From the NCBI GenBank assembly GCA_965113315.1, contig OZ220379.1: a DNA stretch of 64,000 bases; one strand, written 5' to 3'. A model generated the notes under the pieces. It was not told the DNA's origin and did not search any database. It worked only from the letters and a program-made list of their open reading frames with translations. Below, piece by piece: positions 525 to 58,649 of the stretch (position 1 is the stretch's first letter; every line of letters begins with the position of its first letter). The position numbers and the translations under genes are program-made. The stretch is from Podarcis vaucheri (lineage: Eukaryota).

Positions 525-1120
525 TTTATTTTATTTTATAAATTCAGAACTTTTCCAAAGATACAATATAGAGTTCCCCCCTCTTCTCCCCTGGATTCCA
601 GTTTTCTCCCCCCTGATTTCTTGCATCTTATTTTATTTCTCCAAACTCTTTGTTTTCCCTCTTATTTATCCTAATCTCCAATTATATACTTTCATAAATG
701 TTATATCAAACCTTCTAACGTTTTAATATATTTACAGTGGTCTTTTAAATGGTCTATAAATTTATTCCATTCCTGTTCAAACTTTTTCTCATCCTGATCT
801 CTGATCTTCATGGTCATCTTTGCCATTTTGGCATAGTCCATCATCTTAGTTATCTGTTCTTCTTTTGTTGGTACTTTCTCTTCTTTCCATTTCTGGGCAA
901 GCAGCATTCTTGCGGCTGTTGTCGCATACATAAATCGTCTTTTTAAGTCCCTTGGTATTTCATCCCCTGTTAACCAAAGTAAAAAGGCTTCTGTTTTTTT
1001 GACAAAAGTTATCTTAAACATTTTTTTTTGCAATTCATTGTATATCATTTCCCAGAAATCTTTTACTTTTTTACAGGACCACCACATATGGTAAAATGCA
1101 CCTTCCTTACCCTTACATTT
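525..1120 (-). mobile_element. 5'-truncated L1/Tx1-clade LINE, ORF2 C-terminus plus 3' UTR
   Basis: Minus-strand translation KCKGKEGAFYHMWWSCKKVKDFW...AARMLLAQKWK...EWNKF matches the zf-RVT/C-terminal pattern of L1 ORF2; A-rich tail on the minus strand near 525-541. Confidence 0.85.
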
Positions 1121-1529
1121 TGTGTGTAATGTCTCTTAAATCACTCTTGATAGGTTAGAAGGCAGCAGCAAATAGTCTCATTCTAACATGGAGGGATGCC
1201 TTTATTAACAGAGTTGCCATTTCCCCCTACACAGCATTGTGGGGAAGGGAAATCCAATTTTAAAACAAAGGGGTGCATTAAATAAATTCAACAGCTGATC
1301 TGGAGGGAGCTTCCATGTGAGAACAGCAAATACCAAAACTGGAGCAGATGTAGAGTTGAAAGGGAAACAGGTTTGGGCATTGTCAGAGTTCTGCAGAGAC
1401 TGTGACCAATATGAGGATCACATCACCCCTGATAAAACAAAGGCAAATAAAGTTATGGATGGCATGTTCGTCTCAACTAAATACATGAAAGTTGGGCTCC
1501 TGCTTCTATGTATTCTCCCCTACGAAATG

Positions 1530-3851: not shown

Positions 3852-4039
3852 NNNNNNNNNNNNNNNNNNNNNNNNNNNNNNNNNNNNNNNNNNNNNNNNN
3901 NNNNNNNNNNNNNNNNNNNNNNNNNNNNNNNNNNNNNNNNNNNNNNNNNNNNNNNNNNNNNNNNNNNNNNNNNNNNNNNNNNNNNNNNNNNNNNNNNNNN
4001 NNNNNNNNNNNNNNNNNNNNNNNNNNNNNNNNNNNNNNN
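3852..4039. other. Assembly gap (N run)
   Basis: Run of N. Confidence 1.
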
Positions 4040-7547: not shown

Positions 7548-9082
7548 AACTTCAGTGTACCAACATTGCCAACATTAAAGATTGTTCCGCGTACACACGC
7601 AGCCACAGTTGAAAACAGTTGTTTCTTTTTAAAAACACACAACAACAACAACAACAGCCTTGCATTTGCACGTAGGCCCTTCCTCTGTTTCTCCCTGCAA
7701 AAGCAACATCTTGCCAGACATAGCAGGGTTAAACAGAGAGCTCGTCTGGTTTGGTCTTTTGGCATTTTCCAGCTGCTCTTCAAGAGAATATAAAGTGCTT
7801 CGGGAGCATATCCAAACCAGTGGATGTTTAAGAGACTGGGGGGAGGTTAGCTGAAGAGTCACATTCTTGTGTGACTTAGTTACCTTTTGTTGCACTAAAA
7901 GAGAGAGAGAGAGAGAGAGAGAGGGAGGGAAAATGTTGGTGCTGTTCAGTTTTAAACACACACACACACACACACACTTTCAAAGACTAAATGACCTCCA
8001 GGCCTGTTGGCTCCTAAAGCGCAGTTTATCAAGTCTCCTCCGCCTTTTCCCCTGTAAAAATCCAGAGTGAAGTGTGAAAAGCATCAGAAAGCCTCTCTTG
8101 TGCCAGTGCAGCCTTTGAGTCGCTTGCCAGCACCTTCATCTCTTCATATGTTTCTAGCTAAGGTCTAACATGGAACAAAAACCCGACAGCAATAGAGACC
8201 AGATGCTGGTATTTCTTCTCTGTCACTTGGCTGCTGAGCAGATGGAATTTATATCAATCGGGCATGCTTGGAGGAAGAGGCCGTGGCAGCCAACATGTGG
8301 AACTAGGGCTGAGTGACATTTTTGCTAATGTTTTGTCCTTGTAGAACATTATGCTTCCTCTTTGCTTATGAGCTGTGGTTTTCCTGACTCAAACAAGGTT
8401 CCAAGCCCAGCTGGAATGGCTGTGTGTCGTCCCCCCCCCCGTGCCCCCTCCCTTCCTCCCTTCCTAAAGGAGCGCTGGAAGCTATGGAGGAGTGAGGGGC
8501 CCTGAACAATGGAGCTCTTTATTAAAATACCTGACATCTGTATGCAATGCACCCAAATCATTTTAGCCAAGCATTAGAAATTCACTGGGCATTACCAGTC
8601 ACTTTGTGTCCATTTCTGTGCGCGCTTCTTTGATTTATATAATGAGCAAATGCCTCTGGCCCCAAAGGTTTATTTTTAGTTTTGGCTGTTTTATCGGGCA
8701 GGAGCTTCTTTCCTGAGACACATTGTCATAGATCGTCTCAGCAAAAAGAGTAGTAAGAGCAGCAGCAGAAGAAGAATAAAAAAATATATATAGAAAAGTG
8801 ACAGTAAAAAGACGTTCGCCTTTAAACGGAAAGTGGGGGAAACGTAGAAGTTTGGGTAACCTTGCAAATGGCGGTTTTGTTTCTTGAAGCGCCTCGCAGG
8901 CCGTCATTTAAAAAACTGACCAAAGTATTTCATCCATGGAGCTGAGTAGCTGATGGATTTGCAAAAAGCACTACCCCTGCATGTGGAACGATGAACGTCG
9001 TTAGGTTTGTTTGTTTGTTTAAGAGAAGTAAAGACAACAGCAATAAAGAAAAAGACTAGAATTGTGACCTTAACAGCAAGTA

Positions 9083-9324
9083 CAGTGGTACCTCGGGTTA
9101 AGTACTTAATTCGTTCCGGAGCTCCATACTTAACCTGAAACTGTTCTTAACCTGAAGCACCACTTTAGCTAATGGGGCCTCCTGCTGCTGCTGTGCCGCC
9201 GGAGCACAATTTCTGTTCTCATCCTGAAGCAAAGTTCTTAACCTGAAGCACTATTTCTGGGTTAGCGGAGTCTGTAACCTGAAGCGTATGTAACCTGAAG
9301 CATATGTAACCCAAGGTACCACTG
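9083..9324. mobile_element. pogo/Tigger-type (Tc1/mariner superfamily) MITE, family A
   Basis: TIR CAGTGGTACCTCGGGTTA, TA on both flanks, repeated AACCTGAAGC; 242 bp, same length as the copy at 20788. Confidence 0.9.
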
Positions 9325-9928
9325 TAGAAGCACAAATCCCAGGGCTTATCCCACAGCTACTAAGATTCCCCACCTATCCCCATCATGTACCACTTTTGTT
9401 ACATGTTGTGCCATGGTACATTATGCATTATTACAGAACACACACTTAAATGTACAACAACCTCCAGAGATAGTTTCAGCTGAGATGCAATGCCTGGGCC
9501 AGGTGCTCCCAGTGACTGCTCCAAGTGAGGATTTGAACCAGTGTCTCACCAATCCTAGTACAGTAGTTCCCTGCTGCACTGTGTTGACAGTAGTGTGCAA
9601 TTGCACCATCACCTGCAGTTTGCACCAGAAGTCTTGTATTAGCCATCCTCCGATCTAAATGCCTGAGTGTTTGTAGGCAAAGGATGTGACACAATAATTT
9701 GTTGACAAAGGAGCTCAGTGCAACACAGAGACATAAACAGATATGAAACAGTGACTGCACAGAAATGGTGCTTTGCACAATTGCCCTACATTGGTCCAAT
9801 AAATTCACTGAAAAGTTCAGAAGAGTGTGAAATTAATTGGGGGGGAATTGAAGACTTGTGAATTGAAAAAGATTGCCATGTTTCCGTTTGCATATTGTTT
9901 TGGAAAGCACAGATTTGGTAGGTTCACC

Positions 9929-11169: not shown

Positions 11170-11201
11170 GGCTTCGGCTGGGGAGGGCGGGATATAAATA
11201 A

Positions 11202-11242
<41 letters not shown>
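11170..11242 (+). mobile_element. Extremely 5'-truncated young L2 terminus
   Basis: GGCTTCGGCTGGGGAGGGCGGGATATAAATAAA + (TTA)n, identical to the end of the L2 at 25771-25803. Confidence 0.85.
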
Positions 11243-11733: not shown

Positions 11734-11969
11734 GAGCTTTTCCGGGTCATGTGGCCAGCAGGACTAAACCGCTTCTGGCACAACGGGACACCGTGACAGA
11801 AACCAGAGCGCACAGAAACGCCATTTACCTTCCCACCACAGTGGTACCTATTTATTTACTTGCACTGGCCTGCTTTCAAACTGCTAGGTTGTTGGAGCTG
11901 GGACAGAGCAACACCCCGTTGTGTGGAATTGAACCACCGACCTTCTGATCGGCAAGTCCAAGAGGCTCC
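11734..11969 (-). mobile_element. Sauria (Squam1) SINE, partial
   Basis: Reverse complement of the SINE body (GGTACCTATTTAT..ACTTGCAC, CTGCTAGGTTG, CCTTCTGATCGGCAAG); appears to sit within an older L2 remnant spanning ~11520-12140. Confidence 0.8.
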
Positions 11970-16901: not shown

Positions 16902-17252
16902 GGGACGCGGGTGGCACTGTGGGTTAAACCACAGCACCTAGGGCTTGCTGATCAGAAGGTTGGCGGTTCAAATCCCTGCAGTAGGTTGAGCTCCCGTTGT
17001 TCGGTCCCAGCTCCTGCCAACCTAGCAGTTCAAAAGCACGTCAAAGTGCAAGTAGGTAAATAGGTACCACTCCGGCAGGAAGGTAAATGGTGTTTCCATG
17101 CGCTGCTCTGGTTCGCCAGAAGTGGCTTAGTCATGCTGGCCACTTGATCCGGAAGCTGTACGTTGACTCCCTCAGCCAGTAAAGTGAGATGAGCGCCGCA
17201 ACCCCAGAGTCGGTCATGACTGGACCTAATGGTGTCCCTTTACCTTTACCTT
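16902..17252 (+). mobile_element. Sauria (Squam1) SINE, full length
   Basis: GGGACGCGGGTGGC start, B-box GGTTCAAATCC, (ACCTTT)n tail; 16-bp TSD TATAAAGATAGCTTAA at 16884-16899 and 17253-17268. Confidence 0.95.
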
Positions 17253-20298: not shown

Positions 20299-20787
20299 TT
20301 TTACCACTGGCAATCATGACTGCTGTAAAACCTTTGCTCCCAAAGCTGTTGACTGTCTCTCACTCCTGAAAACCAATCTTGCTTCATCTAGGCACACTAC
20401 CACCCAGACTCCAGAGGAAAAGAAGTCAGCTTACAATTAGGTTCCTAACCATGTTACTAGAAATCAAGTTCCACCCTCATTTACCCTCTTATTTGGGTTC
20501 TGTATTTAATGCCTCAGCAGATACAGAGCCAGCCTAATAATCTGGGAAGCAAAGCACTTGGATTTAAAATGGATCGCATCAAGGAGGTCATCACCATCTG
20601 TTCCCCCACCCCATTTTAAAGGAAATTGACAAGAATAGGAGGTGGAAAGAGATAGGCATGCACTATTGTTTTTTTTAAAAATCCAAGTGGGTTCCATGTT
20701 GTTAGTTCTGGTTGAAGCCCAATCCCAAGTCTGAAAAGTTTTGGAGTTTCTGGGATAGAAAAGAGGCAGGCCCCTGGGAACACAATA

Positions 20788-21029
20788 CAGTGGTACCTCG
20801 GGTTAAGTACTTAATTCGTTCCGGAGTTCCGTTCTTAACCTGAAACTGTTCTTAACCTGAAGCACCCCTTTAGCTAATGGGGCCTCCTGCTGCCGCCATG
20901 CCATCAGAGCACAATTTCTGTTCTCATCCTGAAGCAAAGTTCTTAACATGAAGCACGATTTCTGGGTTAGAGGGGTCTGTAACCTGAAGTGTATGTAACC
21001 TGAAGCGTATGTAACCCGAGGTACCACTG
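20788..21029. mobile_element. pogo/Tigger-type MITE, family A
   Basis: Perfect TIR CAGTGGTACCTCGGGTTA / TAACCCGAGGTACCACTG, TA TSD, 242 bp. Confidence 0.92.
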
Positions 21030-22061
21030 TATAGGATCTAGACTAGAGTTGTGGATCAGTCGAAGAAGACGTTTTAACCAGGCAAGAGTCAGTTCGGCGT
21101 TTTGCTCTGTGTCTTGACACTCAGTGCAAGCCCTTTGGCTGAAGCAAGGTAGTGCGAACACGCTCAGCCAACTTGCCTGGCCTGCCGCTCTTGTGTCAGC
21201 AAGACTGAGCTCTTTGTGTGTGCGACCGGAGACACTCCCTCCCTCAAGGGCTCGGCTCGCTTTTCCCTCAGAACTCTTACCTCTAGCAGGTCTAAAAAAA
21301 CAAGGGACCTAAATTGGAGGTTGCGCCTTTACTTAGATTGAAATCTTTTAATTAAGAAAAAGAGCACCAGAAATGTATTCTGCGCTTCAGGGCGATAGTT
21401 TTAAGTGAAGTCCTCCTTTTAGTCTTCATATCCTAGTTATTATCCTCCGTTTACAAAAAATATTTTTATGGTGTTCATAATGCTAAAACAAGTGGGGCTG
21501 ACAGCTTAATTTTCAGAATAATTAACGTGCTGCTCATTGCAATAGCTTTATTTCCTAGCTGCCCCCAAACTTTAAACGTTCTCTCTCTCTCTCTAGATTA
21601 ATACAGTGTACAGAAGTTTCACTACTACCAAGGCCACTTTTGTTTTAAGCCACAATTTGATGCCATAAAAGAAAGGAGCACTGGAAAATAAATCAATATA
21701 TTTTAATTAGGAAGGCAAACCACAGCTTCTTCCCTTTAAAATACACTTGAGGTGTGTCAAATAGCCTTAGTTTCAGTTTTCAAGTCAAATGTCGCAACAT
21801 GAAATGTTTCAGAAAATACTTTCTGTGAATATTCACATTTTCCTCCTCTCCCCAAACTGTTCCTTTAGGTCAGGGATGGGCAATCTCCCCCCACCCTCAT
21901 ATGGGGCCACATTCCCTCAGGGAAAATACTTCAGCAAAACCTTTCAAGCAGCAGCTGTGATCCAAAGGGATATTCAGTTGATACGTTGTTTTGTGTAACT
22001 TGGCCACAAAACAGCTGTCCGTTGTAGAGGTGGGCTCACAGTGATGTTCCTCCTCTTACAT

Positions 22062-23437: not shown

Positions 23438-23571
23438 TGGTTGCTGAGTTTTTGAATTAATTTTATAATGAATGATTTTAGAGTGTTGTTTGTGCTGTAC
23501 TTTTGTACTGTTTTATTGTTGTTAGCCGCCCTGAGCCCGGCTTCGGCTGGGGAGGGCGGGATATAAATAAA

Positions 23572-23624
<53 letters not shown>
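23438..23624 (+). mobile_element. Young L2 3' UTR fragment
   Basis: GTTAGCCGCCCTGAGCCCGGCTTCGGCTGGGGAGGGCGGGATATAAATAAAATT identical to 25753-25806; long (TTA)n tail. Confidence 0.9.
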
Positions 23625-24029: not shown

Positions 24030-24377
24030 GGGCCTCCCTCCCTGTTTGTGGAATGCTTTCCCCATGTTAGCATGCCTGGAAACATCACTGTCTGTTTTTA
24101 GGTGCCAGGCAAATACATTCTTAGTTACCCAGGCTTATGTGGTTGTTTTACTTGGGAGGGTAGTCAGATAAGTTAATGGCCTTTGTTGGGCTCATACTTT
24201 AAGTGGGGTGGGTAGAACTCATTATTTAAAAAAATATTGCTGAATTAGCATCTTAGATTTTGCTTGTTGGTCTGGTTTTAAAGTCTTTGTTGTTTTATTT
24301 GTGCTGTGTAAATCGCCTGAGGCACTTGAGTGCAAAAAGTACAACTAAAATAATCGTAATTGGTTAATAGTTATTAT
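24030..24377 (+). mobile_element. Old, decayed L2 3' fragment
   Basis: TGTGGAATGCTTTCCC...TTTAGGTGCCAGGCAAATACATTC...GTAAATCGCCTGAG resembles L2 ORF2 end and 3' UTR; its tail is the target site of the young L2. Confidence 0.5.
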
Positions 24378-24388
24378 TAGTAGTAGTA

Positions 24389-25630
24389 GACCCATTCCAG
24401 TCCGGCTTCCGCGCTGGTCATGGGACCGAGACGGCTCTGGTCGCCCTAACAGATGATCTCCGCAGGCAGCTGGATCGAGGCGGGTCGGGGCTGCTGATTC
24501 TTCTAGATCTGTCAGCAGCCTTTGACATGGTCGATCACGAACTCCTGGACCACCGCCTTGCCGACGTGGGGATCCAGGGCACAGTCCTTCAATGGCTGCG
24601 CTCGTTTCTCTCTGGTCGGGGACAGAGGGTGGCGCTTGGGGGGGAATTGTCATCACGCCACTCCTTGGTGTGTGGAGTGCCTCAGGGTGCAATTCTCTCC
24701 CCGATTCTTTTTAACATCTTTATGCGCCCCCTCGCCCAGCTTGTCCGGAGTTTTGGGCTGGGTTGCCATCAGTATGCCGATGACACCCAACTCTGTCTGT
24801 TGATGGATGGCCATCCTGACTCGGCCCCAGATACACTGACCAGATGTCTGGAAGCTGTGGCTGGATGGTTACGTGGGAGCCGGTTGAAGTTAAATCCTTC
24901 GAAGACGGAGGTCCTCTGGCTGGGGCGGGACGATATGGGATTGAGGGGGCAACTCCCATCTCTTGCGGGGGTGCAATTAGTGCCAGCACCGGCCGTTAAG
25001 AGTTTGGGTGTAATCTTCGATACCTCCCTCTCTATGGAGGCGCAGATTACAGCTATAACAAAGGCGGCATTTTTTCATCTCCGCCAAGCTAAGCAGTTGG
25101 CCCCTTATCTCTCTCGTCCTGACCTAGCCACTGTGATCCATGCGACGGTCACCTCCAGACTGGATTATTGTAACTCGCTCTACGTGGGGCTGCCCTTGAG
25201 ACTGACCCAGAAACTCCAGCGGGTGCAGAATGCCGCGGCGAGACTCCTTATGGGGTCTTCGCTGCGAGAGCACATTCATCCAGTATTATACCAGCTGCAC
25301 TGGCTCCCGGTGGAGTACAGGATCAGGTTTAAGGTGCTGGTTTTAACCTTTAAAGCCCTATACGGCCTAGGACCCTTGTACCTACGGGACCGCCTCTCCT
25401 GGTATGTCCCACAGAGAAACCTACGGTCAGCAAATAATAACATCCTCAAGGTCCCAGGCCTCAGAGAGGTTAGGCTGGCCTCAACTAGAGCCAGGGCCTT
25501 CTCGGCTGCGGCTCCAACCTGGTGGAATGCTCTGTCACAAGAGACTAGGGCCCTGCGGGACCTGACATCTTTCCGCAGGGCCTGCAAGACAGAGTTGTTC
25601 CGCCAGGCCTTTGGTCAGGGCGCAGCCTGA
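24389..25630 (+). CDS. L2 ORF2 remnant (reverse transcriptase domain and C-terminus; no endonuclease, no native start)
   Basis: In frame from DPFQSGFR (24389) through LDLSAAFD, GVPQGAILSP, QYADDTQL, LNPSKTE, RLDYCNSL, LHWLPV to TGA at 25630; track ORF 24527-25630. Confidence 0.9.
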   Translation, partial: DPFQSGFRAGHGTETALVALTDDLRRQLDRGGSGLLILLDLSAAFDMVDHELLDHRLADVGIQGTVLQWLRSFLSGRGQRVALGGELSSRHSLVCGVPQGAILSPILFNIFMRPLAQLVRSFGLGCHQYADDTQLCLLMDGHPDSAPDTLTRCLEAVAGWLRGSRLKLNPSKTEVLWLGRDDMGLRGQLPSLAGVQLVPAPAVKSLGVIFDTSLSMEAQITAITKAAFFHLRQAKQLAPYLSRPDLATVIHATVTSRLDYCNSLYVGLPLRLTQKLQRVQNAAARLLMGSSLREHIHPVLYQLHWLPVEYRIRFKVLVLTFKALYGLGPLYLRDRLSWYVPQRNLRSANNNILKVPGLREVRLASTRARAFSAAAPTWWNALSQETRALRDLTSFRRACKTELFRQAFGQGAA

Positions 25631-25803
25631 CCCCCTCCTCTGGCAACCTGCACAAAATCTTGCTTAATCGGTTGCCATCAATTTGATTTTAACTAATTTT
25701 ATAATGAAATATTTTTAGAATGTATGATTATTTGATTGTTTATTTGATTGTTGTTAGCCGCCCTGAGCCCGGCTTCGGCTGGGGAGGGCGGGATATAAAT
25801 AAA

Positions 25804-25835
<32 letters not shown>
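24389..25835 (+). mobile_element. Young 5'-truncated L2-clade LINE
   Basis: Uninterrupted RT frame, CpG-rich, 3' stem-loop, (TTA)n tail; TAGTAGTAGTAG on both sides (24378-24389 and 25836-25847). Confidence 0.95.
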
Positions 25836-27817: not shown

Positions 27818-28189
27818 GAGTGACGAGGGTGGTGCTGTGGTGTAAACCTCTGAGCCTTGGGCTTGCCGATCCGAAGGTCAAAGGTTCGAATCCCCATGAT
27901 GGGGTGAGCTCCCATTGTTCGGTCCCAGCTCCTGCCAACCTAGCAGTTCGAAAGCACGTCAAAGTGCAAGTAGATAAATAGGTACCACTCCAGTGGGAAG
28001 GTAAATGGCATTTCCATGTGCTGCTCTGGTTTCACCAGAAGCGGCTTAGTCATGCTGGCCACATGACCTGGAAAAACTGTCTGCAGGCAAACGTCAGCTC
28101 CCTTGGCCAGTAAAGCGAGATGAGCACCACAACCCCAGAGTCATTCGCGACTGGACTTAACTGTCAGGGGTCCTTTACCTTTTTTAAAA
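27818..28189 (+). mobile_element. Sauria (Squam1) SINE, full length
   Basis: Perfect B-box GGTTCGAATCC; 13-bp TSD AAATGAAAACCAG at 27805-27817 and 28190-28202. Confidence 0.93.
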
Positions 28190-30470: not shown

Positions 30471-31512
30471 TGCAGGAAATTCACTTGGGGAAGTATTTCC
30501 AAGCATTGCAGTTTTCACAGTGCATTGCTTACTACAGGAATACCCCTAAACTATTTTGAAAACCCTATTGTCAGATGTGAAATTATGTGAGAGGCACTTC
30601 CTATAGCTTTCCTAAATGTAGCCGTGTTTTATCCGTGCTTCCTTGATTTGTGAAGGTTACAAGACGGTGGCTGTGCTTACAACTTCTTGCTGTCCCAAAA
30701 TTAGGGGTTGTCCCTGGTGTGCTAAAATTTCCCAAAGCTACGTGTTCATCAGTTCTCACAAGTAAGGGAGTGTGCTGCCTTTATTGTATGAAACAAGCCT
30801 AAATGTACCAGTGCTTCAGTCCCCTCCTGAAAGCTAGATTCCCACAAAAGGAAGAATTACAAATTTCCACTGGCACTACTACTTTTGATGTGTGGCAGCT
30901 GTGCGAGTCAGAACTGCCTAAAGCTGATTGTAATAAAGGATTGCCACAGTTTCTGGCAATTTAATGTTAGCACTAAGAATTTGAGAGTCACTGTTTGAAC
31001 ATTACATTGGTAACTTTTGTATCCTTTTATATTACATTCATGTTAGTGGAGTCCTTCTAAAATGCAAACCCTATATAGAAACCTATGAAGAACAACATTG
31101 TCTAAAGGTATTAAAGGGAACTACCAAGGCTTTGGGAAATTATTTGAGTACAATTGACTAAGAAAGAATTGGAAAGGTATAGGGGGAATACAGACGGGTA
31201 CACTTTGAACAAGTATTCTCAGCTGAGAATAAAAGTGTTGCCTTTTAGGTTCACAGATACAATTTGGCTGAGTTTTTTTTATTTCAACTTGAAAGCAAAG
31301 TAATGTAAGCCTGAGGCTGAGATATTTTTTGCTGATGCCATCTCAAGAGAAAGCTGGGGTTTCCTATGGTTTATTGAGATGAATGGAGGATAACCACCAG
31401 ACTCCTTGAACGTGCCTTCAAGAAGCATGAATGTCCATTATACCAGAAATAGAATTGCCACCTCGGTTCTAAAATCTAGGCCTTTTCCAGCTAATTAGGC
31501 ACCAGGCTGGTA

Positions 31513-31775
31513 CAGTGGTGCCTCGCAAGACGAAATTAATTCGTTCTGCGGGTTTTTTCGTCTTGCGAATTTTTCGTCTTGCGAAGCACAGTCAAGTCGC
31601 AACTGCACCTCTTCAAGTGGTTTTAAGAAAAAGGAAACAAACTTGCAAGACGTTTTCATCTTGCGAAGCAAGCCCATAGGGAAATTCGTCTTGCGCCGCA
31701 ACTCAAAAAATGAAAAACTCTTTCGTCTTGCGAGTTTTTCGTCTTCCGAGGCATTCGTCTTGCGAGGTACCACTG
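31513..31775. mobile_element. pogo/Tigger-type MITE, family B
   Basis: TIR CAGTGGT(G/A)CCTCGCAAGACGAA, TA TSD, multiple internal CGTCTTGCGA repeats. Confidence 0.9.
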
Positions 31776-32398
31776 TATTGCAGAATTTGAGCTTAAGAAC
31801 TGAAACTGGAGCAAAGGCTGGAATCCTTGACAATTCCAACTTTCAGATTTGTGGTCTTCAAGATTGTGGTGTTGTCAAGTCTTTGTAGGCAGCATTTCTC
31901 TCTCCTTTGATCTTAGTACTGTGGTCCTATAGTGTTAAGATTGGAGATAAGCCTCTCCTTGCTTTTAAAAGGCAACAGCAGAGGCTTATTTCCCATCTTA
32001 GAACCCTGGGTATACAACACTAAGATGGAAATAAGCCTATGTCTGCTCCCAGCTTGAACTTTAAATTATTTGTGGTCATGATGCCGGGTGATTGACAGGA
32101 GGTTCAAAAATGCCCCCCGGAAAAAATGGCCAACAGAGGATGATTCAGTTTGGGGTCAAACCCTAGGGCTGAAAAATGTCCCCCACCCCTGCCTTATAAT
32201 ATGGGTTAATAAGGATATGGGCAAGGTGAAATGGAGACCTATCAGGGACATTCATGGATGCAGATAACTTGGGTTTGGGGCATATAGGAAAGAGGGCAAG
32301 GTTTAAGAAATGAGGGAGATGGAGAAAAAAGCAAAGAATAAAATGACAATGAGAAAGGACAGAAGAAGTGATGGTTTTCATGTGATTTAAAGCAAGTA

Positions 32399-32497
32399 CA
32401 GTGGTACCTCGGGTTAAGAATTTAATTTGTTCTGGAGGTCCGTTCTAATCTGAAACTGTTCTTAACCTGAGACACCACTTTAGTAAATGGAGTCTCC

Positions 32498-32530
<33 letters not shown>

Positions 32531-32577
32531 ACCACCACCGCGCGATTTCTGTTCTCATCCTGAAGCAAAGTTGTTAA
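32399..32577. mobile_element. pogo/Tigger-type MITE, family A, right end missing; contains (CTG)n
   Basis: TA-CAGTGGTACCTCGGGTTAAG start, colinear with the 9083 copy until ~32577. Confidence 0.85.
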
Positions 32578-34228: not shown

Positions 34229-34811
34229 TTACCCTTGTGCTTAGCTCACACCTGAACTTCAGAGGTGGCTGTTGGGCAAGAGAAGTTCCTATTTGAGTGG
34301 TTGCCCAGATTTCTGCTATGTGGTTCCCCTGCAACTCCCCCCCCCTTATTTGTTTAAATTCATGCTTGCTTCATCTTGAATATGCCTTCTGCTGCTCTTC
34401 CCTTTCTACCCACTGCACCTGCATTAATTGTGACAAGCAAAATAGACTTCGTTAAATACGAGAGTTACCACCCCAGTAGACTCACCCCAGGGAAGTCAGA
34501 AAACATGATCACCCTCATCCCAAATGGACAGCATGGGTGGGGGGAATCCTTTCTGGTCTCCAAAGGGTGACAAGCATATGCTTGGGCTGTTTCTGGCCAG
34601 GGGTTGGGGGGAGAACACAATGCTGCCTTTGCCTCAGCTGAACTTGAGATGTACAGCTTTGACTTTTTATAGGCTGGTGAGGTCTCATTCTTGCTATCCA
34701 TACTTAGTTGGATGGAGGGAGTATATGTTGAGAAGGTATGACCTGTGAGTATTTAAAAACAACAGCACTGTTTCTTCTAGAGATTGGAAGGGGAAATGCA
34801 TACTGGATATA

Positions 34812-35360
34812 CAGTGGTACCTTGGTTCTCAAACTTAATCCGTTCCGGAAGTCCGTTCCAAAACCAAAGCGTTCCAAAACCAAGGTGCGCTTTTCCATAG
34901 AAAGTGATACAAAACAGATTAATCTGTTCCAAACTTTTAAAAACAACCCCTAAAACAACAATTTAACATAAATTTTACTATCTAATGAGACCATTGCTCA
35001 ATAAAATGAAAGCAATAAACTTTCACACACACAATCAATCAATCGGTAGCTGAACTGGGTTCCACACAGTCACACACAAAAAAGCCACATAAACGCAAAA
35101 TAAATAGCAAAAACAGACAGACCTCAGTGTCACACTCAAAACAGAGGTGTGGCACTCAAATCAGAAGCGTAACACTCAAATTGTCAGTGTCACACTCAAA
35201 ACTGAATTGTAGCACTCAAAACGGAAGTGTAACAACCAAAACGGAGCATGTCCAGCTTCCAAAAAAGAGTTCACAAACTGGAACAATTACTTCTGGGTTT
35301 GCAGTGTTTGGGTTCCAAGTTGTTTGAGTACCAAGGCATTTGAGAACCAAGGTACCACTG
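34812..35360. mobile_element. pogo/Tigger-type MITE, family C
   Basis: Perfect 22-bp TIR CAGTGGTACCTTGGTTCTCAAA, TA TSD, internal ~20-bp tandem CACTCAAAA units at ~35125-35245. Confidence 0.92.
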
Positions 35361-36967: not shown

Positions 36968-37299
36968 GGGACGCGGGTAGTGCTGTGGGTTAAACCACAG
37001 AGCCTAGGACTTGCTGATCAGAAGGTCAGTGGTTCGAATCCCTGCGACGGGGTGAGCTCCCGTTGCTTTGTCCCAGCTCCTGCCAACCTAGCAGTTCGAA
37101 AGCGCATCAAAGTGCAAGTAGATAAATAGGTACCACTCCGGCGGGAAGGTAAACGCCAGAAGCAGCTTAGTCATGCTGGCCACATGACCCGGAAGCTGTA
37201 TGCCGGCTCCCTCAGCCAATAAAGCGAGATGAGCGCCGCAACCCCAGAGTCAGCCACGACTAGACCTAACGGTCAGGGGTCCCTTTACCTTTACCTTTT
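36968..37299 (+). mobile_element. Sauria (Squam1) SINE with a short internal deletion
   Basis: 13-bp TSD AGGCTACTTCAAA at 36955-36967 and 37300-37312; GGTAAAC joins directly to GCCAGAAG, lacking the segment present in the 16902 copy. Confidence 0.95.
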
Positions 37300-40350: not shown

Positions 40351-40609
40351 AGGTAAGGTAAGGTCATGTGGCCAGAATGACTAAGCCACTTCTGGCGAAA
40401 CCAGAGCTGCGCACAGAAACACTGTTTACCTTCTTGCCGGGGTGGTACCTATTTATCTACTTGCACTTTGATGTGCTTTCGAATTGCTAGGTTGGCAGGA
40501 GCTGGGACAAAGCAACGGGAGCTCACCCCGTCGTGCGGATTCGAACCTCCAACCTTCAGATCGGCAAGCCTAAAGGGCTAAGTAGTTTAGACCACAGCGC
40601 CACTTGCGT
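40351..40609 (-). mobile_element. Sauria (Squam1) SINE lacking its 3' segment
   Basis: Intact 5' part (B-box GGTTCGAATCC) and body up to CACATGACC, then directly a (TTACC)n tail. Confidence 0.88.
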
Positions 40610-43510
40610 TTATCATTTACAGGACCTACTGCTCAGTGATAAGAGCAGAACGTACCAATGTTCTGTGCATTTTGTTTTTACTGTATTAGGAAAAGAGTAG
40701 AACAGCGTGCAGTAAATTTTGCACAGAATAAGTGCTTAATGAATGCAATTCTTATTGGATTAGTGGGGCTCGTCATTACGCAGGATACACGAACACCTAA
40801 TAGTATAAATGGATTGAGAAAAGCTTAGATGGGCTGTGGTGTCTGCCTTTATGCAGCCTTATTTTGCAAAGCTGTTACAACACCAAAACGTTTGGGTCTG
40901 CCATCACCATGATGCTGCTTTACAGAGTACAACCTCCAAATTTGGCATTATCTGGAGTTTCCCGTTATGAAGTGTGTGTCTACCTTGCTCTCTGTACTGA
41001 ATTTCTTTAAACTACATTGAAAACAGAATGTGTACATCTTGACTGAACAATGTACAGAATCCCCTATTATGCTATCTATCTGTGTATCTTCGCCATACCT
41101 TGATGTGAATGTGCACAATTGCTTTTGGTTATGTTGATTCTCTCCTGAATTTGCATTAATGTCATCATATCGTGGCACATGGGAACTGGCTAGAGATCTT
41201 GAAATATTTCACATAGCAAGGCGAGTAATACAAGCATTTATTTTAGTACAGGAGTATAAACTCATTAATAACTTTCCCATTAAACCGTGGCATGTTTGTA
41301 TTTTCCAGTGCACAGGGGACAAAAGCATCTCATTGTCACTGGTATTATCCTGGTGATGCCTTGATGTTCAGTGCAATAAATTAATATGATGGAAAGCCCA
41401 TTTATTTCATCTTGATCAGACAGAGCCATGCTCAGAGCTACATAGCATGTTAGTGCCATCTAATACCCTTCATAGACTTAATTTACATCTTGGACTTCCT
41501 TGTTAATAAGTGTCTGTACATTAAATGATCTGTGCTTACTACATTGAACATTCCTTTAATCTCATAATGCTACTACTAAAGATGTTCTCAAGCTGGAGAA
41601 TCTGTGCGTAAGGAAGAATTTCCTCTGAAGAATAAAATTGGCAGTTAAAAAAAAATCTACTATTAAAAATAGAATCTGGCTACCTTGCTGATGAAGCCCA
41701 GTCTTCTGTTGGTCATGGAAGTCCAAAACAAAAGGAAGGCACTAGATTTAACTGGGCTGTTTCATTAAAAATAAGTTCCATGAAGGAAAACCAGCATGTA
41801 GATTATTGTGCATGTGTGTGGTTTTTTCCTGCATGACACTTTTTGGGCAAAGCCAAGTAGGATTAACTGCCCAGTTGCAGTTTCTCAGAATATAGAGGCT
41901 GCATTTGGATTATCATGCCTCAGTAGTATAATATATCACTAATAGGAACAAACCTTTTGCAGCCCCTTTGCCCCTGCCTTTGCCTGCTATGCAATTAAGC
42001 TTCTAATTAACCATAGTTTCCCATTTGGCCCAAACTGGGAAACTATGGCTACCAGATTTGGGGCAAGGCATGGCTTGAAGGTGCTTTACTACAGGAAGAG
42101 TAAAGAGGTTGCATGCACAGAGAAAGGTTTATTCATATCTCAGTTTGTTGAACCAAGAGCATCCAAAACCATCTCATTCAGGGCATGCGCCATAAAAGTC
42201 CATATGCATGATAATGAAATATAACCCTATGTGCAGGATTCCTGCCTTCCCTTTAGGAGTTTCCAGTATGAAGTGTCTCCAGCTCATGTTGTATCTGTTG
42301 CACCAATTTTCTTTTAAAGCCAAAGTTTTTAGCCCTGACCGTGCTTACTGGGGAATAAGACCCAATGAAATTAAGTGTCTGATATTCTTAGGATTTGTTG
42401 TTGGTTTTTTAAAATATTTTTTATTAACAGGCCAAATCTCATTAGTTCCAAATCACATTAGTTCCAAATTATACAGCCAGATTTTTAAATTTTGTTGGGG
42501 GTACCCATACTTCAAGCTCCGAACAGGGGTCCAAGCATCACTTATATTGCTGCTTTAATTAGACAGTTCTATCCAGTTCTGTCCAGTTAGTCTCTTTATT
42601 ACTTTCTTCATCTTCTTGTTGTTATCATATATTCCTTTCTTTGCGATCTCTGATAATCTTCACAAGCGGGTTGGGAACAAACATCCTCTGTGAGGGTTTT
42701 ACACTCTCCAAAGATCATATCACTTAGGGACAGCCGCCATTCCACACTTCCGTAAAGAATTTATCTTCGGTCTGTCCTTTAATTTTCCCAGGCTTGTCAA
42801 GTATATCAGGAGGACTCTGCTAGGTTTAGATCACATTCCAATCATCATTCACATTCCAGTGATCCTGGTCCTCCTCCCCCCGTCTTTCTTAGACAAGCCT
42901 GTCTTAGCGAGACACCATTTAAAACTACGTCATAAAACTTTACTCCGTTCTCCATTGTTTACCAATCATCTCTTTGATATAATTCACTCCACACAGTTCT
43001 TGAATTCCTGCTTGTGATTAATAAAATGCAATGATCTTCTTTCTGGGGTGGAGGGTTATTAATACTCACATAAGGCAAAGAAAAGAAAAGTTTTTTCCTC
43101 CACCCCCCTTCCGTTTCACTCCAAACATACCAGTCTCTTAATGGGATTCATCACTTGATTTATTTGTCCTGTCCGTTGCTCCGGTCACAGAGATCCATTA
43201 ATCAGCAGTCTTATCTCCCCGAACTTCACTTGATGTATGTGCTTTAGCTTCTTTCCAATTATATATTTCCAATTATATTTTCGAGCTAAAGCGAACCAGC
43301 ACGCGCTGATTGGAGACAGCGTCAGGAAGAGCCAACTTCACCGAGGGCTTGTGCCAAGTGACCGGCCACCCCCTTCTTTCGAATCCGGGGGTGCATTATG
43401 GACACTGCTGGCAAGGCAGTTCCCCCCATCTCCTTAGGGGGGGTGGGAAGGCTGCATACTTCCCATAGCAGCCTCTTAATTACCTCGTGTGGGTCAGAGA
43501 GATGTTATTG

Positions 43511-43521
43511 TCGGCCATCTT
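43511..43521 (-). promoter_or_regulatory. YY1-like motif (L1 internal promoter type)
   Basis: AAGATGGCCGA, the same string as the YY1 site near the 5' end of human L1. Confidence 0.6.
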
Positions 43522-43526
43522 CCAAT

Positions 43527-43542
43527 GCGCCACCTGGTGGCC
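43527..43542 (-). promoter_or_regulatory. CTCF-like motif
   Basis: GGCCACCAGGTGGCGC closely matches the CTCF core consensus; motif match only. Confidence 0.6.
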
Positions 43543-44101
43543 CCCTGATATTCTTAGGATTTGAATGTAAACCAATTGTTCTTCTCTCCTTCCCAGGCTG
43601 TATATGGGCCAGCTCACTTTACTGGGTCAGCTAGAGCTCTGCCTGATTCTATTATGATTGGAGGGGAGTTGAGAGGGATGCTGTATGTGGCAGGGCTGCT
43701 GATTAGAGATTTACTGCTGGTAAATGAGCCATCATAGCTGCTAGAGGGTCGTGTCATGGGCTTTTTAGAAACCAAAGAGTTCTATCTGAAACCAAAGGGG
43801 TGCATTGATTGCCAGATCTGATTTTCCCCTCAGCTCTCCTACCCTACCAGAAGCCTTTCCCAGCCCTGCTGTCTGAGATTCTTTTCAACCAAGCTGTTTG
43901 ATATTTAACTTGGATCTTAAGCATGCTTTGTTACATCTGCATCCACTACCATAGTGCTAAAGTTGACCGTGGACCCTTCCCATAGAAGATGGAAGCTGGT
44001 AGGCTCCTACTCCCTCGTCTTCTTCTGAATATTGAAAAAATCAGGTGTGAAACCATCTGAGTGGTATGGTAGGCCCCTGCTTCTGCTTTATACTGTACAC
44101 T

Positions 44102-44456
44102 TGTCGTTTAGTCGTGTCCGACTCTTCGTGACCCCATAGACCAGAGCACACCAGGCACTTCTGTCTTCCACTGCCTCCCGCAGTTTGGTCAAACTCATGC
44201 TGGTAGCTTCGAGAACACTATCCAACCATCTCGTCCTCTGTCGTCCCCGTCTCCTTGTGTATCTTTCCCAACATCAGGGTCTTTTCCAGGGAGTCTTCTC
44301 TTCTCATGAGGTGGCCAAAGTATTGGAGCCTCAGCTTCACAATCTGTCCTTCCAGCGAGCACTCAGGGCTGATTTCCTTAAGAATGGATAGGTTTGATCT
44401 TCTTGCAGTCCATGGGACTCTCAAGAGTCTCCTCCACCACCATAATTCAAAAGCAT
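44102..44456 (-). mobile_element. BovB (RTE clade) LINE 3' fragment
   Basis: RVPWTARRSNLSILKEISPECSLEGQIVKLRLQYFGHLMRREDSLEKTLMLGKI and terminus GGGGTCACGAAGAGTCGGACACGACT; TSD CTGTACACT (44093-44101, 44457-44465). Confidence 0.93.
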
Positions 44457-44465
44457 CTGTACACT

Positions 44466-44622
44466 AACCTTCCTCAACTGTACACTAACCTTCCTCAACT
44501 GGGAATCTTCTGGATGTTTTAGACTACAGATTCCATCAGCCCTGACCAGCCTAGACCAATGGTCAGGCATGATGGGAGTTCTTATCCAAAACATCTTCAG
44601 GGCACCAAATTGGAGGATGCTG
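44466..44622. mobile_element. Short palindromic hAT-like MITE
   Basis: GATGTTTT...CCTGACCA...TGGTCAGG...AAAACATC nested inverted repeats. Confidence 0.55.
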
Positions 44623-51057: not shown

Positions 51058-51192
51058 NNNNNNNNNNNNNNNNNNNNNNNNNNNNNNNNNNNNNNNNNNN
51101 NNNNNNNNNNNNNNNNNNNNNNNNNNNNNNNNNNNNNNNNNNNNNNNNNNNNNNNNNNNNNNNNNNNNNNNNNNNNNNNNNNNNNNNNNNNN
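51058..51192. other. Assembly gap (N run)
   Basis: Run of N. Confidence 1.
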
Positions 51193-58325: not shown

Positions 58326-58649
58326 NNNNNNNNNNNNNNNNNNNNNNNNNNNNNNNNNNNNNNNNNNNNNNNNNNNNNNNNNNNNNNNNNNNNNNNNNNN
58401 NNNNNNNNNNNNNNNNNNNNNNNNNNNNNNNNNNNNNNNNNNNNNNNNNNNNNNNNNNNNNNNNNNNNNNNNNNNNNNNNNNNNNNNNNNNNNNNNNNNN
58501 NNNNNNNNNNNNNNNNNNNNNNNNNNNNNNNNNNNNNNNNNNNNNNNNNNNNNNNNNNNNNNNNNNNNNNNNNNNNNNNNNNNNNNNNNNNNNNNNNNNN
58601 NNNNNNNNNNNNNNNNNNNNNNNNNNNNNNNNNNNNNNNNNNNNNNNNN
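58326..58649. other. Assembly gap (N run)
   Basis: Run of N. Confidence 1.

Follow-up and report, generated by a model that had tools for sequence, protein, structure and literature searches.

The window analysed here, a 64,000-nucleotide stretch of Podarcis vaucheri contig OZ220379.1 (assembly GCA_965113315.1), contains on its minus strand a real, young, multi-copy retroposon of 1,147 bp (42398-43544) that has no coding open reading frame (ORF) and carries a credible CTCF-like core at its 5' end. An exact 19-bp direct repeat brackets the insert, with one copy upstream of the element 5' end (43545-43563) and the other after the tail (42379-42397). The original prediction, made from the sequence alone, of a minus-strand insert of about 1.15 kb within a perfect 19-bp target-site duplication is thus borne out. 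The first one to three letters of the upstream copy can be assigned to the tail instead, which gives a duplication of 16-18 bp (each option was scored).

Structure of the inserted element

Read along the minus strand, the element consists of four G residues, the CTCF-like core (element positions 5-18; 43527-43540), a 5-nt spacer, a YY1-type word (element positions 24-32; 43513-43521), a GC- and CpG-rich leader (43283-43544), an A-rich non-coding body (42555-43282), an AATAAA poly(A) signal (42420-42425) and an A-rich tail of 22 nt (42398-42419). The body (36% A, 25% T) is the part that varies most among copies. A repeat scan shows a 14-bp tandem duplication at the leader/body border (43252-43282) and one of 16 bp directly ahead of the poly(A) signal (42432-42469), neither assigned to a strand. 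The AATAAA and A-rich tail are present as predicted; the tail has an A content of 64% and closes with CAA repeats that run into the target-site duplication.

There are no terminal repeats in the element and no second copy of it within the window, and folding gives no special structure in its first 200 nt (z -1.25) or its last 203 nt (z +0.41). Nothing in the window reaches the Rfam gathering score, the best match over the element having an E value of 0.86. With a target-site duplication, a single copy of that sequence at the empty site (see below), many family copies, defined ends and an A-rich tail, the element is a retroposon of the non-LTR kind (LTR, long terminal repeat). A solo LTR, a DNA transposon and a DIRS element are rejected on anatomy (the 19-bp duplication, the tail, no terminal repeats).

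Family copies, empty site and age

Four of 24 listed sequencing runs were aligned to positions 41400-44050 at 80% likeness, three of DNA (X1, X4 and X10) and one of RNA (X23). The X1 flanks show no difference from the window, and this run, possibly made from the source sample itself, does not count as independent. The runs X4, X10 and X23 stem from three further studies, X4 with the organism label of the best-matching run and X10 with a different one. In all three DNA runs the depth steps up at both duplications, and summed contig depth in the 13 element bins is 101-3,245 times that of the flanks in X1, 138-3,970 times in X4 and 50-1,341 times in X10. The 5' 90 nt are deepest (43447-43535; 1,341-3,970 times the flanks in the three runs), a 3' region comes next (42468-42645; 469-1,413 times) and the middle is lowest. 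Contigs of other copies, differing by about 9-15%, overlap without a break from 42640 to 43464 among the contigs listed, and no piece bridges 42621-42640 among the pieces listed (4,939 more lie beyond them). Single-base insertions and deletions are frequent among copies, and only 3-7% of the aligned contigs continue into unlike sequence.

Because these contigs overlap colinearly and few run on, we regard the copies as colinear and often complete at the 5' end, with subfamilies of different ages; and because the whole insert is 50- to 4,000-fold deeper than its flanks, it belongs to a colinear multi-copy family and is not a one-off deletion of LINE-1 (L1; LINE, long interspersed element). Neither of two outcomes raised with the original prediction, a single-copy insert or simply a deleted ordinary L1, is therefore what is found. 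The copies are many, probably hundreds to thousands. One X1 contig joins 42505 to 43498, skipping 992 bp with 12 other letters, and is possibly a short, internally deleted derivative.

The empty site is present in X10, where one contig joins 42381 to 43548, skipping 1,166 bp and retaining a single copy of the duplication, as the check proposed with the prediction had anticipated for a relative. This contig has a depth of 15.3, which is the single-copy level, and 203 letters on its shorter side; an X4 contig spans the 5' junction of the element. The X10 flanks differ from those of the window at 30 of 1,185 letters (2.5%), and since the insertion is absent from one of two species that are 2.5% apart in the flanks, it is young. 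The element has 12 near-fixed differences from its family in 1,147 bp (about 1%) among the differences listed (40 of 345), consistent with that age.

The 5' head

Besides the CTCF-like core, the 64 kb contain no exact match to the CTCF pattern used (an IUPAC pattern), where 0.01 is expected and 1 of 100 shuffles reaches one match; if a single mismatch is tolerated the core remains the sole match, but 28 of 100 shuffles reach one. The YY1-type word resembles a start motif of mammalian L1 elements in the available text of PMC5381506. By itself it is at chance level (one seen against 0.74 expected in the window) and is notable only for its position, 24 nt from the element 5' end. The arrangement described in the original prediction, a CTCF-like motif followed after 5 nt by a YY1-type word at the start of the minus strand, is found as stated.

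The leader (the first 262 nt) is 58% GC with a CpG observed/expected ratio of 0.54, compared with 0.29 for the window, in agreement with the CpG-containing leader proposed earlier, and may include an internal RNA polymerase II (Pol II) promoter. Its CpG richness partly reflects the youth of the element, as the ratio is also high in the body (0.50). A CCAAT-box word lies in the leader at 43306-43313, at chance level as a word. The prediction had also reported no tRNA A or B boxes. This stands for the B box, with none within two mismatches at element positions 30-110, while the short interspersed element (SINE) copies elsewhere in the window do show exact B boxes; it does not strictly hold for the A box, of which an 11-mer likeness with one mismatch exists at element positions 13-23, overlapping the CTCF-like core; such words are no commoner than chance predicts (69 against 69 expected).

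Among the differences listed, the DNA runs of organism A have none within 43335-43586, and the element part of this interval has none in any run, although family coverage is deepest here and near-fixed differences are listed for other parts. On this indirect evidence, it is improbable that the CTCF motif occurs in this copy alone. Scans with the 5'-end pattern gave five metagenome matches, each limited to 23-24 nt in GC-/CpG-rich DNA and attributable to chance, and none in viral or prokaryote genome contigs.

Coding capacity

The longest ATG-started sense ORF in the element is 36 aa, and there are stop-free sense stretches of 62 and 60 aa; the earlier statement that no ORF of at least 60 aa is present is thus correct for ATG-started frames and incorrect for stop-free stretches. 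Reading through the 728-nt body requires eight stop or frameshift breaks, compared with 9.4 +/- 1.9 in shuffled sequences (153 of 500 at or below eight). Simulated intact ORFs reached eight breaks in none of 300 cases at 3% decay, two of 300 at 5% and 22 of 300 at 12%.

None of the six element frames has a Pfam match. One sense frame matches none of 1.84 billion representative proteins or 572 word-seeded candidates, and a joint profile of the other two matches none of 6,198 word-seeded candidates; in simulation the joint profile found nine of ten planted segments at E < 0.001. These protein searches covered lengths of 210-669 aa, and few lizard repeat proteins are represented in them. Searches of PDB sequences with the three sense frames gave best E values of 0.27, none and 0.1, as expected by chance. 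The possibility of an endogenous bornavirus-like retrocopy was set aside, given no Pfam match and the high multiplicity.

Because the break count is like that of random sequence, the insertion is younger than the 2.5% split and no protein matches, the element was already non-coding when inserted. Of the 12 family differences listed, five abolish a stop codon, four of them in one frame; 0.9% and 0.3% of 20,000 random draws, respectively, do as much. This excess is not counted as evidence of coding, since private mutations create stops equally under both models.

Transcription

About 12% of RNA run X23 was read, and 493 of 12.8 million records align to the stretch, including two small neighbouring repeats; 464 of the 493 are under 95% alike. 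First mates on the plus strand outnumber those on the minus strand in 12 of 13 element bins (3.65:1 overall). The library appears to be stranded, because one neighbouring repeat is balanced between strands and the other is fully one-sided. Provided that this is a library of the common type, RNA from diverged copies leans to the sense strand of the element. Related copies are transcribed, with a promoter of their own as a candidate.

The one-sided repeat is a short one at 41998-42061, where X1 depth is about 10-17 times that of the flanks and X23 RNA lies on one strand only (17-26 versus 0); its reads extend beyond it into different sequence, as would those of a single transcript originating elsewhere. 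The balanced repeat (43714-43821) is a small multi-copy sequence 150 bp from the element 5' end, at about 180 times flank depth in X1. At 42523, 27 RNA reads leave the element into mixed, weakly similar sequence, which may represent a diverged subfamily or a partner that shares the last 100 nt only.

Relationship to L1

The window has an L1 fragment of its own, a 5'-truncated copy at 530-1168 (minus strand) whose ORF2 C-terminus is open over 144 aa and shares 55% identity with L1 ORF2 proteins of lizards; the three nearest proteins to its 701-1135 portion are at 55% identity, and two of them are named Podarcis muralis in UniRef. Related lizards have L1 ORF2 proteins of full length. A profile of ORF2, built from seven of 20 fetched proteins and representing one L1 lineage, scores 139 bits on the window fragment as a control and -3.3 bits on the element, on which a second profile, of the C-terminus, scores 0.2 bits. 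The L1-like origin put forward in the original prediction is not borne out as descent, since the element has no ORF2 remnant and its 5' end is unlike the lizard L1 consensus motifs. Four element 5' motifs searched for in the available part of the PMC5381506 supplement were not found there. A 15-residue likeness to the ORF2 C-terminus, noticed by eye, was rejected (64 of 500 shuffles as good, tblastn E value 0.12, negative profile score). An alignment of the 3' end to AT-rich sequence at about 25650-25720 exceeded 99 of 100 shuffles but is low-complexity, and was not used.

Proposed mechanism

The explanation that we favour, and to which as a whole we give somewhat better than an even chance, is that the element is a non-coding retroposon transcribed by Pol II and target-primed by L1 ORF2p. 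Taken separately, it is probably transcribed by Pol II and was likely copied by LINE-1 enzymes. Pol II would begin transcription with the first G, driven by a promoter inside the conserved head, with the YY1-type word perhaps positioning the start, by analogy with mammalian L1, where such a word is reported to do so (PMC5381506, available text). The RNA would then be polyadenylated at the AATAAA and reverse transcribed by L1 ORF2p, primed at the nicked target. Selection would maintain the 5' head for its promoter function. The CTCF site would most likely serve the element itself, keeping the promoter open, and any effect on the host would be a by-product. Either CTCF or BORIS could bind the predicted site, because both are widely expressed in the bearded dragon (PMC2515639, in the part available).

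L1 is favoured as the mover because of the poly(A) signal, the tail, the long duplication and a target site one mismatch from TT/AAAA. An AATAAA followed by an A-rich tail, together with a long duplication, is present as for L1-dependent elements, although the tail is only 64% A, and the available text of PMC5381506 gives an AATAAA ahead of an A-rich tail as the pattern of L1. The target site is one mismatch from TT/AAAA in the 19-bp reading of the duplication; such sites make up 1.2% of window positions, and this is a single site.

Several observations weigh against this explanation. No sequence link to L1 was found, the ORF2 C-terminal profile giving at best 0.2 bits on the element. Its 3' end does not align to that of the window L1 fragment (91 of 100 shuffles are as good), and its 5' end carries neither the clade-1 nor the clade-2 start motifs of anole L1 given in the accessible portion of PMC5381506. 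The tail ends in CAA repeats, with a TTT 8-11 nt before the duplication, as has been described for wall-lizard Bov-B. The strand direction of the X23 library is not on record, none of the 493 X23 records is 99% alike, 89% of them run on into unlike sequence, and no shared RNA start point was found among the X23 reads. The excess of stop-removing differences runs against the non-coding reading, although 14 of the 17 stops of the frame concerned are untouched in the body by the listed differences. The CTCF motif lies near alignment ends, which are discounted, and 40 of 345 differences are listed, so that variation of the motif among copies could be hidden. Finally, the depths that indicate a large family are summed over contigs and are not copy numbers, and the relative with the empty site is represented by one individual only.

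Alternative explanations

The same non-coding element could have been moved by a LINE other than L1, e.g. an RTE-clade Bov-B, as a long ORF-less partner of that clade; we consider this unlikely, but it deserves attention. Podarcis muralis Bov-B elements are described as ending in (CAA)2-6, with duplications that start with A about 10 nt after a TTT (PMC13295347, available text), and the tail of the element ends in two to three CAA units, with a TTT beginning 9-11 nt ahead of an A-starting duplication of 16-18 bp. RTE is also one of four clades reported to have ORF-absent derivatives in the part of PMC5786205 available. However, all three A-start options lack a T directly ahead of the first A, so that there is no T/A cut, and 3.4% of window positions have a TTT plus A. 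The 3' end shows no alignment with the Bov-B-like 3' fragment of the window (87 of 100 shuffles are as good), although this is a weak test, as the Sauria-SINE control scored 28 against a shuffle maximum of 33. No 5' ribozyme is matched in Rfam, and the AATAAA before an A-rich tail follows the L1 pattern, according to the available text of PMC5381506. That the element is an exceptionally long SINE whose Pol III head goes unrecognised is very unlikely. Its first 90 nt would be the most widely shared part, as they are here, and the A-box-like 11-mer at element positions 13-23 would fit such a head, but that match is at chance level, no B box lies at positions 30-110 where the window SINEs have exact ones, neither tRNA nor Rfam matches are found, and the squamate SINEs described in the accessible part of PMC10702118 are 190-350 nt long.

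In a HAL1-type family, active members would encode ORF1p and the present copy would derive from a dead master or be too diverged to recognise, which we regard as quite improbable. The layout of the element (about 260, 730 and 150 nt) fits the parts of anole clade-2 L1, for which the available text of PMC5381506 gives a 5' untranslated region (UTR) of 229 nt, an ORF1 of 762-1,125 nt and a 3' UTR of 96-154 nt; the sense strand is A-rich; and the stop-removal excess points the same way. That excess is post hoc and not diagnostic, however, as most stops of the frame are untouched and eight breaks are still needed, and single-base insertions and deletions are frequent among copies. Moreover, no ORF1 domain or protein was matched in Pfam, the representative proteins, the word-seeded candidates or PDB (a direct lizard ORF1 profile was not among these searches). 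The comparison with HAL1 drawn in the original prediction does not hold for this copy, since encoding ORF1p is what defines HAL1 and none is encoded here. A burst of processed retrocopies from one host RNA would account for the duplication, the tail and a start that resembles the start-codon context of an mRNA, yet no frame matches a protein, the few RNA reads are for the most part less than 95% alike, unlike those of one abundant parent transcript, and the long contigs that differ by 9-15% indicate several self-propagating subfamilies; this, too, is very unlikely. A one-off, internally deleted ordinary L1 would explain the L1-like start word, the tail and the duplication, but it can be virtually dismissed, as other copies are colinear across the body and no ORF2 remnant is detected where the control L1 fragment scores 139 bits.

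Comparison with known elements

The element works like two described types of non-autonomous retroposon and belongs, on what was found, to neither. It is reminiscent of Sadhu of Arabidopsis, as described in the available text of PMC2848041, in being non-coding, A-tailed and flanked by duplications, in having no tRNA or 5S head and no A or B boxes, and in having a conserved 5' motif, diverged subfamilies, presumed movement by LINEs and sense transcription. Sadhu differs in being a plant (Brassicaceae) element of 39 copies whose 5' motif, searched for, is absent from the lizard element; no kinship is implied, and no CTCF or YY1 words are described for it in that part of PMC2848041. The second type, the bipartite ORF-absent LINEs (RIME, NARTc, Bov-A, WALLSI3 and Vingi derivatives; PMC5786205, available part), shares a probable Pol II drive, the lack of an ORF, conserved ends and movement in trans, but is defined by ends shared with an autonomous LINE, and none were found for the lizard element among the L1 and Bov-B-like ends compared. 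HAL1 (PMC5753468 and PMC5786205, in the portions available) is likewise short and non-autonomous, with L1-type ends and a similar size, but encodes ORF1p, whereas the lizard element was non-coding at insertion and has no detectable L1 sequence.

The 5' end has parallels of its own. The CTCF-carrying SINEs (rodent B2, dog SINEC-Cf and opossum MAR; PMC3368268, available text) also copy a CTCF core with each insertion and are inserted in a lineage-specific manner, but they are short and mammalian, with binding demonstrated by chromatin immunoprecipitation sequencing (ChIP-seq); the lizard element is 1.15 kb long and has no tRNA head, and its motif is a predicted binding site in a reptile. With vertebrate L1 5' ends, as given in the available text of PMC5381506, it shares a start on a G run, a near-start YY1-type word as in mammals, a short CpG-rich leader as in anole clade 2, and an AATAAA with an A tail; it differs in being unlike the anole clade-1 and clade-2 start consensus, in having a 14-bp CTCF-like core ahead of the YY1-type word and in having neither ORF1 nor ORF2. 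The squamate tRNA SINEs (Squam1/Sauria, Squam2 and Squam3; PMC10702118, available part) have A and B boxes in a tRNA-like head and a length of 190-350 nt, neither of which applies to the element, and a search for its motifs in three supplements of that paper gave 0 matches. Full-text literature searches, which do not reach most subscription papers, listed no account of a lizard family of this kind or of CTCF sites carried by repeats in reptiles, and the family may already sit in Repbase or Dfam under an automatic name.

Possible significance

If the start motif is really bound, the element would seed new CTCF binding sites, and dispersal of CTCF sites by the family would be plausible. The fullest version of this proposal is that an undescribed, Pol II-driven, ORF-less L1 parasite has spread hundreds to thousands of bound CTCF (and YY1) sites through lizard genomes and is still spreading between close species; this we hold to be doubtful, with perhaps a modest chance of being right. 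Spread of CTCF sites by repeats is established for rodents, dog and opossum, and for other vertebrates it has only been proposed, according to the available text of PMC3368268, and the lizard family would, if the proposal is true, be the first such expansion shown in a reptile. It would likewise be an ORF-absent partner from a LINE clade without any in the 2018 survey, where such derivatives are given only for RTE, Ingi, Vingi and R2 in the part of PMC5786205 available, and it would bring to amniotes a class of LINE parasite that is long, ORF-less and not of Pol III type. Presence and absence between species 2.5% apart would provide matched filled and empty sites at which to ask whether a new CTCF site alters reptile chromatin. 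Should the motif be methylated and unbound, this would simply be an unclassified lizard repeat family worth naming.

Other repeats in the window

A Pfam scan of the 142 stop-free frames of at least 78 aa in the window gave two matches above the curated cut-off, both LINE-fragment-like, and no host exon. An open 419-aa reverse-transcriptase frame (Pfam RVT_1, E 6e-30) lies in an element at 24371-25830 (plus strand) with a tail of ATT repeats, which we take to be a CR1/L2-type LINE; its 3' end recurs at 11170-11242 and 23515-23611. The 3' fragment at 44080-44463 (minus strand), presumably Bov-B-like, adjoins a perfect 21-bp tandem pair at 44457-44501 that is possibly its duplication or a local repeat.

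Copies of tRNA-headed SINEs, which we presume to be Sauria-like, are found at 16904-17252, 27822-28183 and 36970-37292 (plus strand) and at 40361-40602 and about 11735-11967 (minus strand), three of them with exact B boxes. The window also includes three assembly gaps (runs of N at 3852-4039, 51058-51192 and 58326-58649). A repeat family starting with TACAGTGGTACCTC is represented at 9070-9326, 20775-21031, 31510-31546, 32386-32577 and 34799-34879; we assume that its members are probably non-autonomous DNA transposons.

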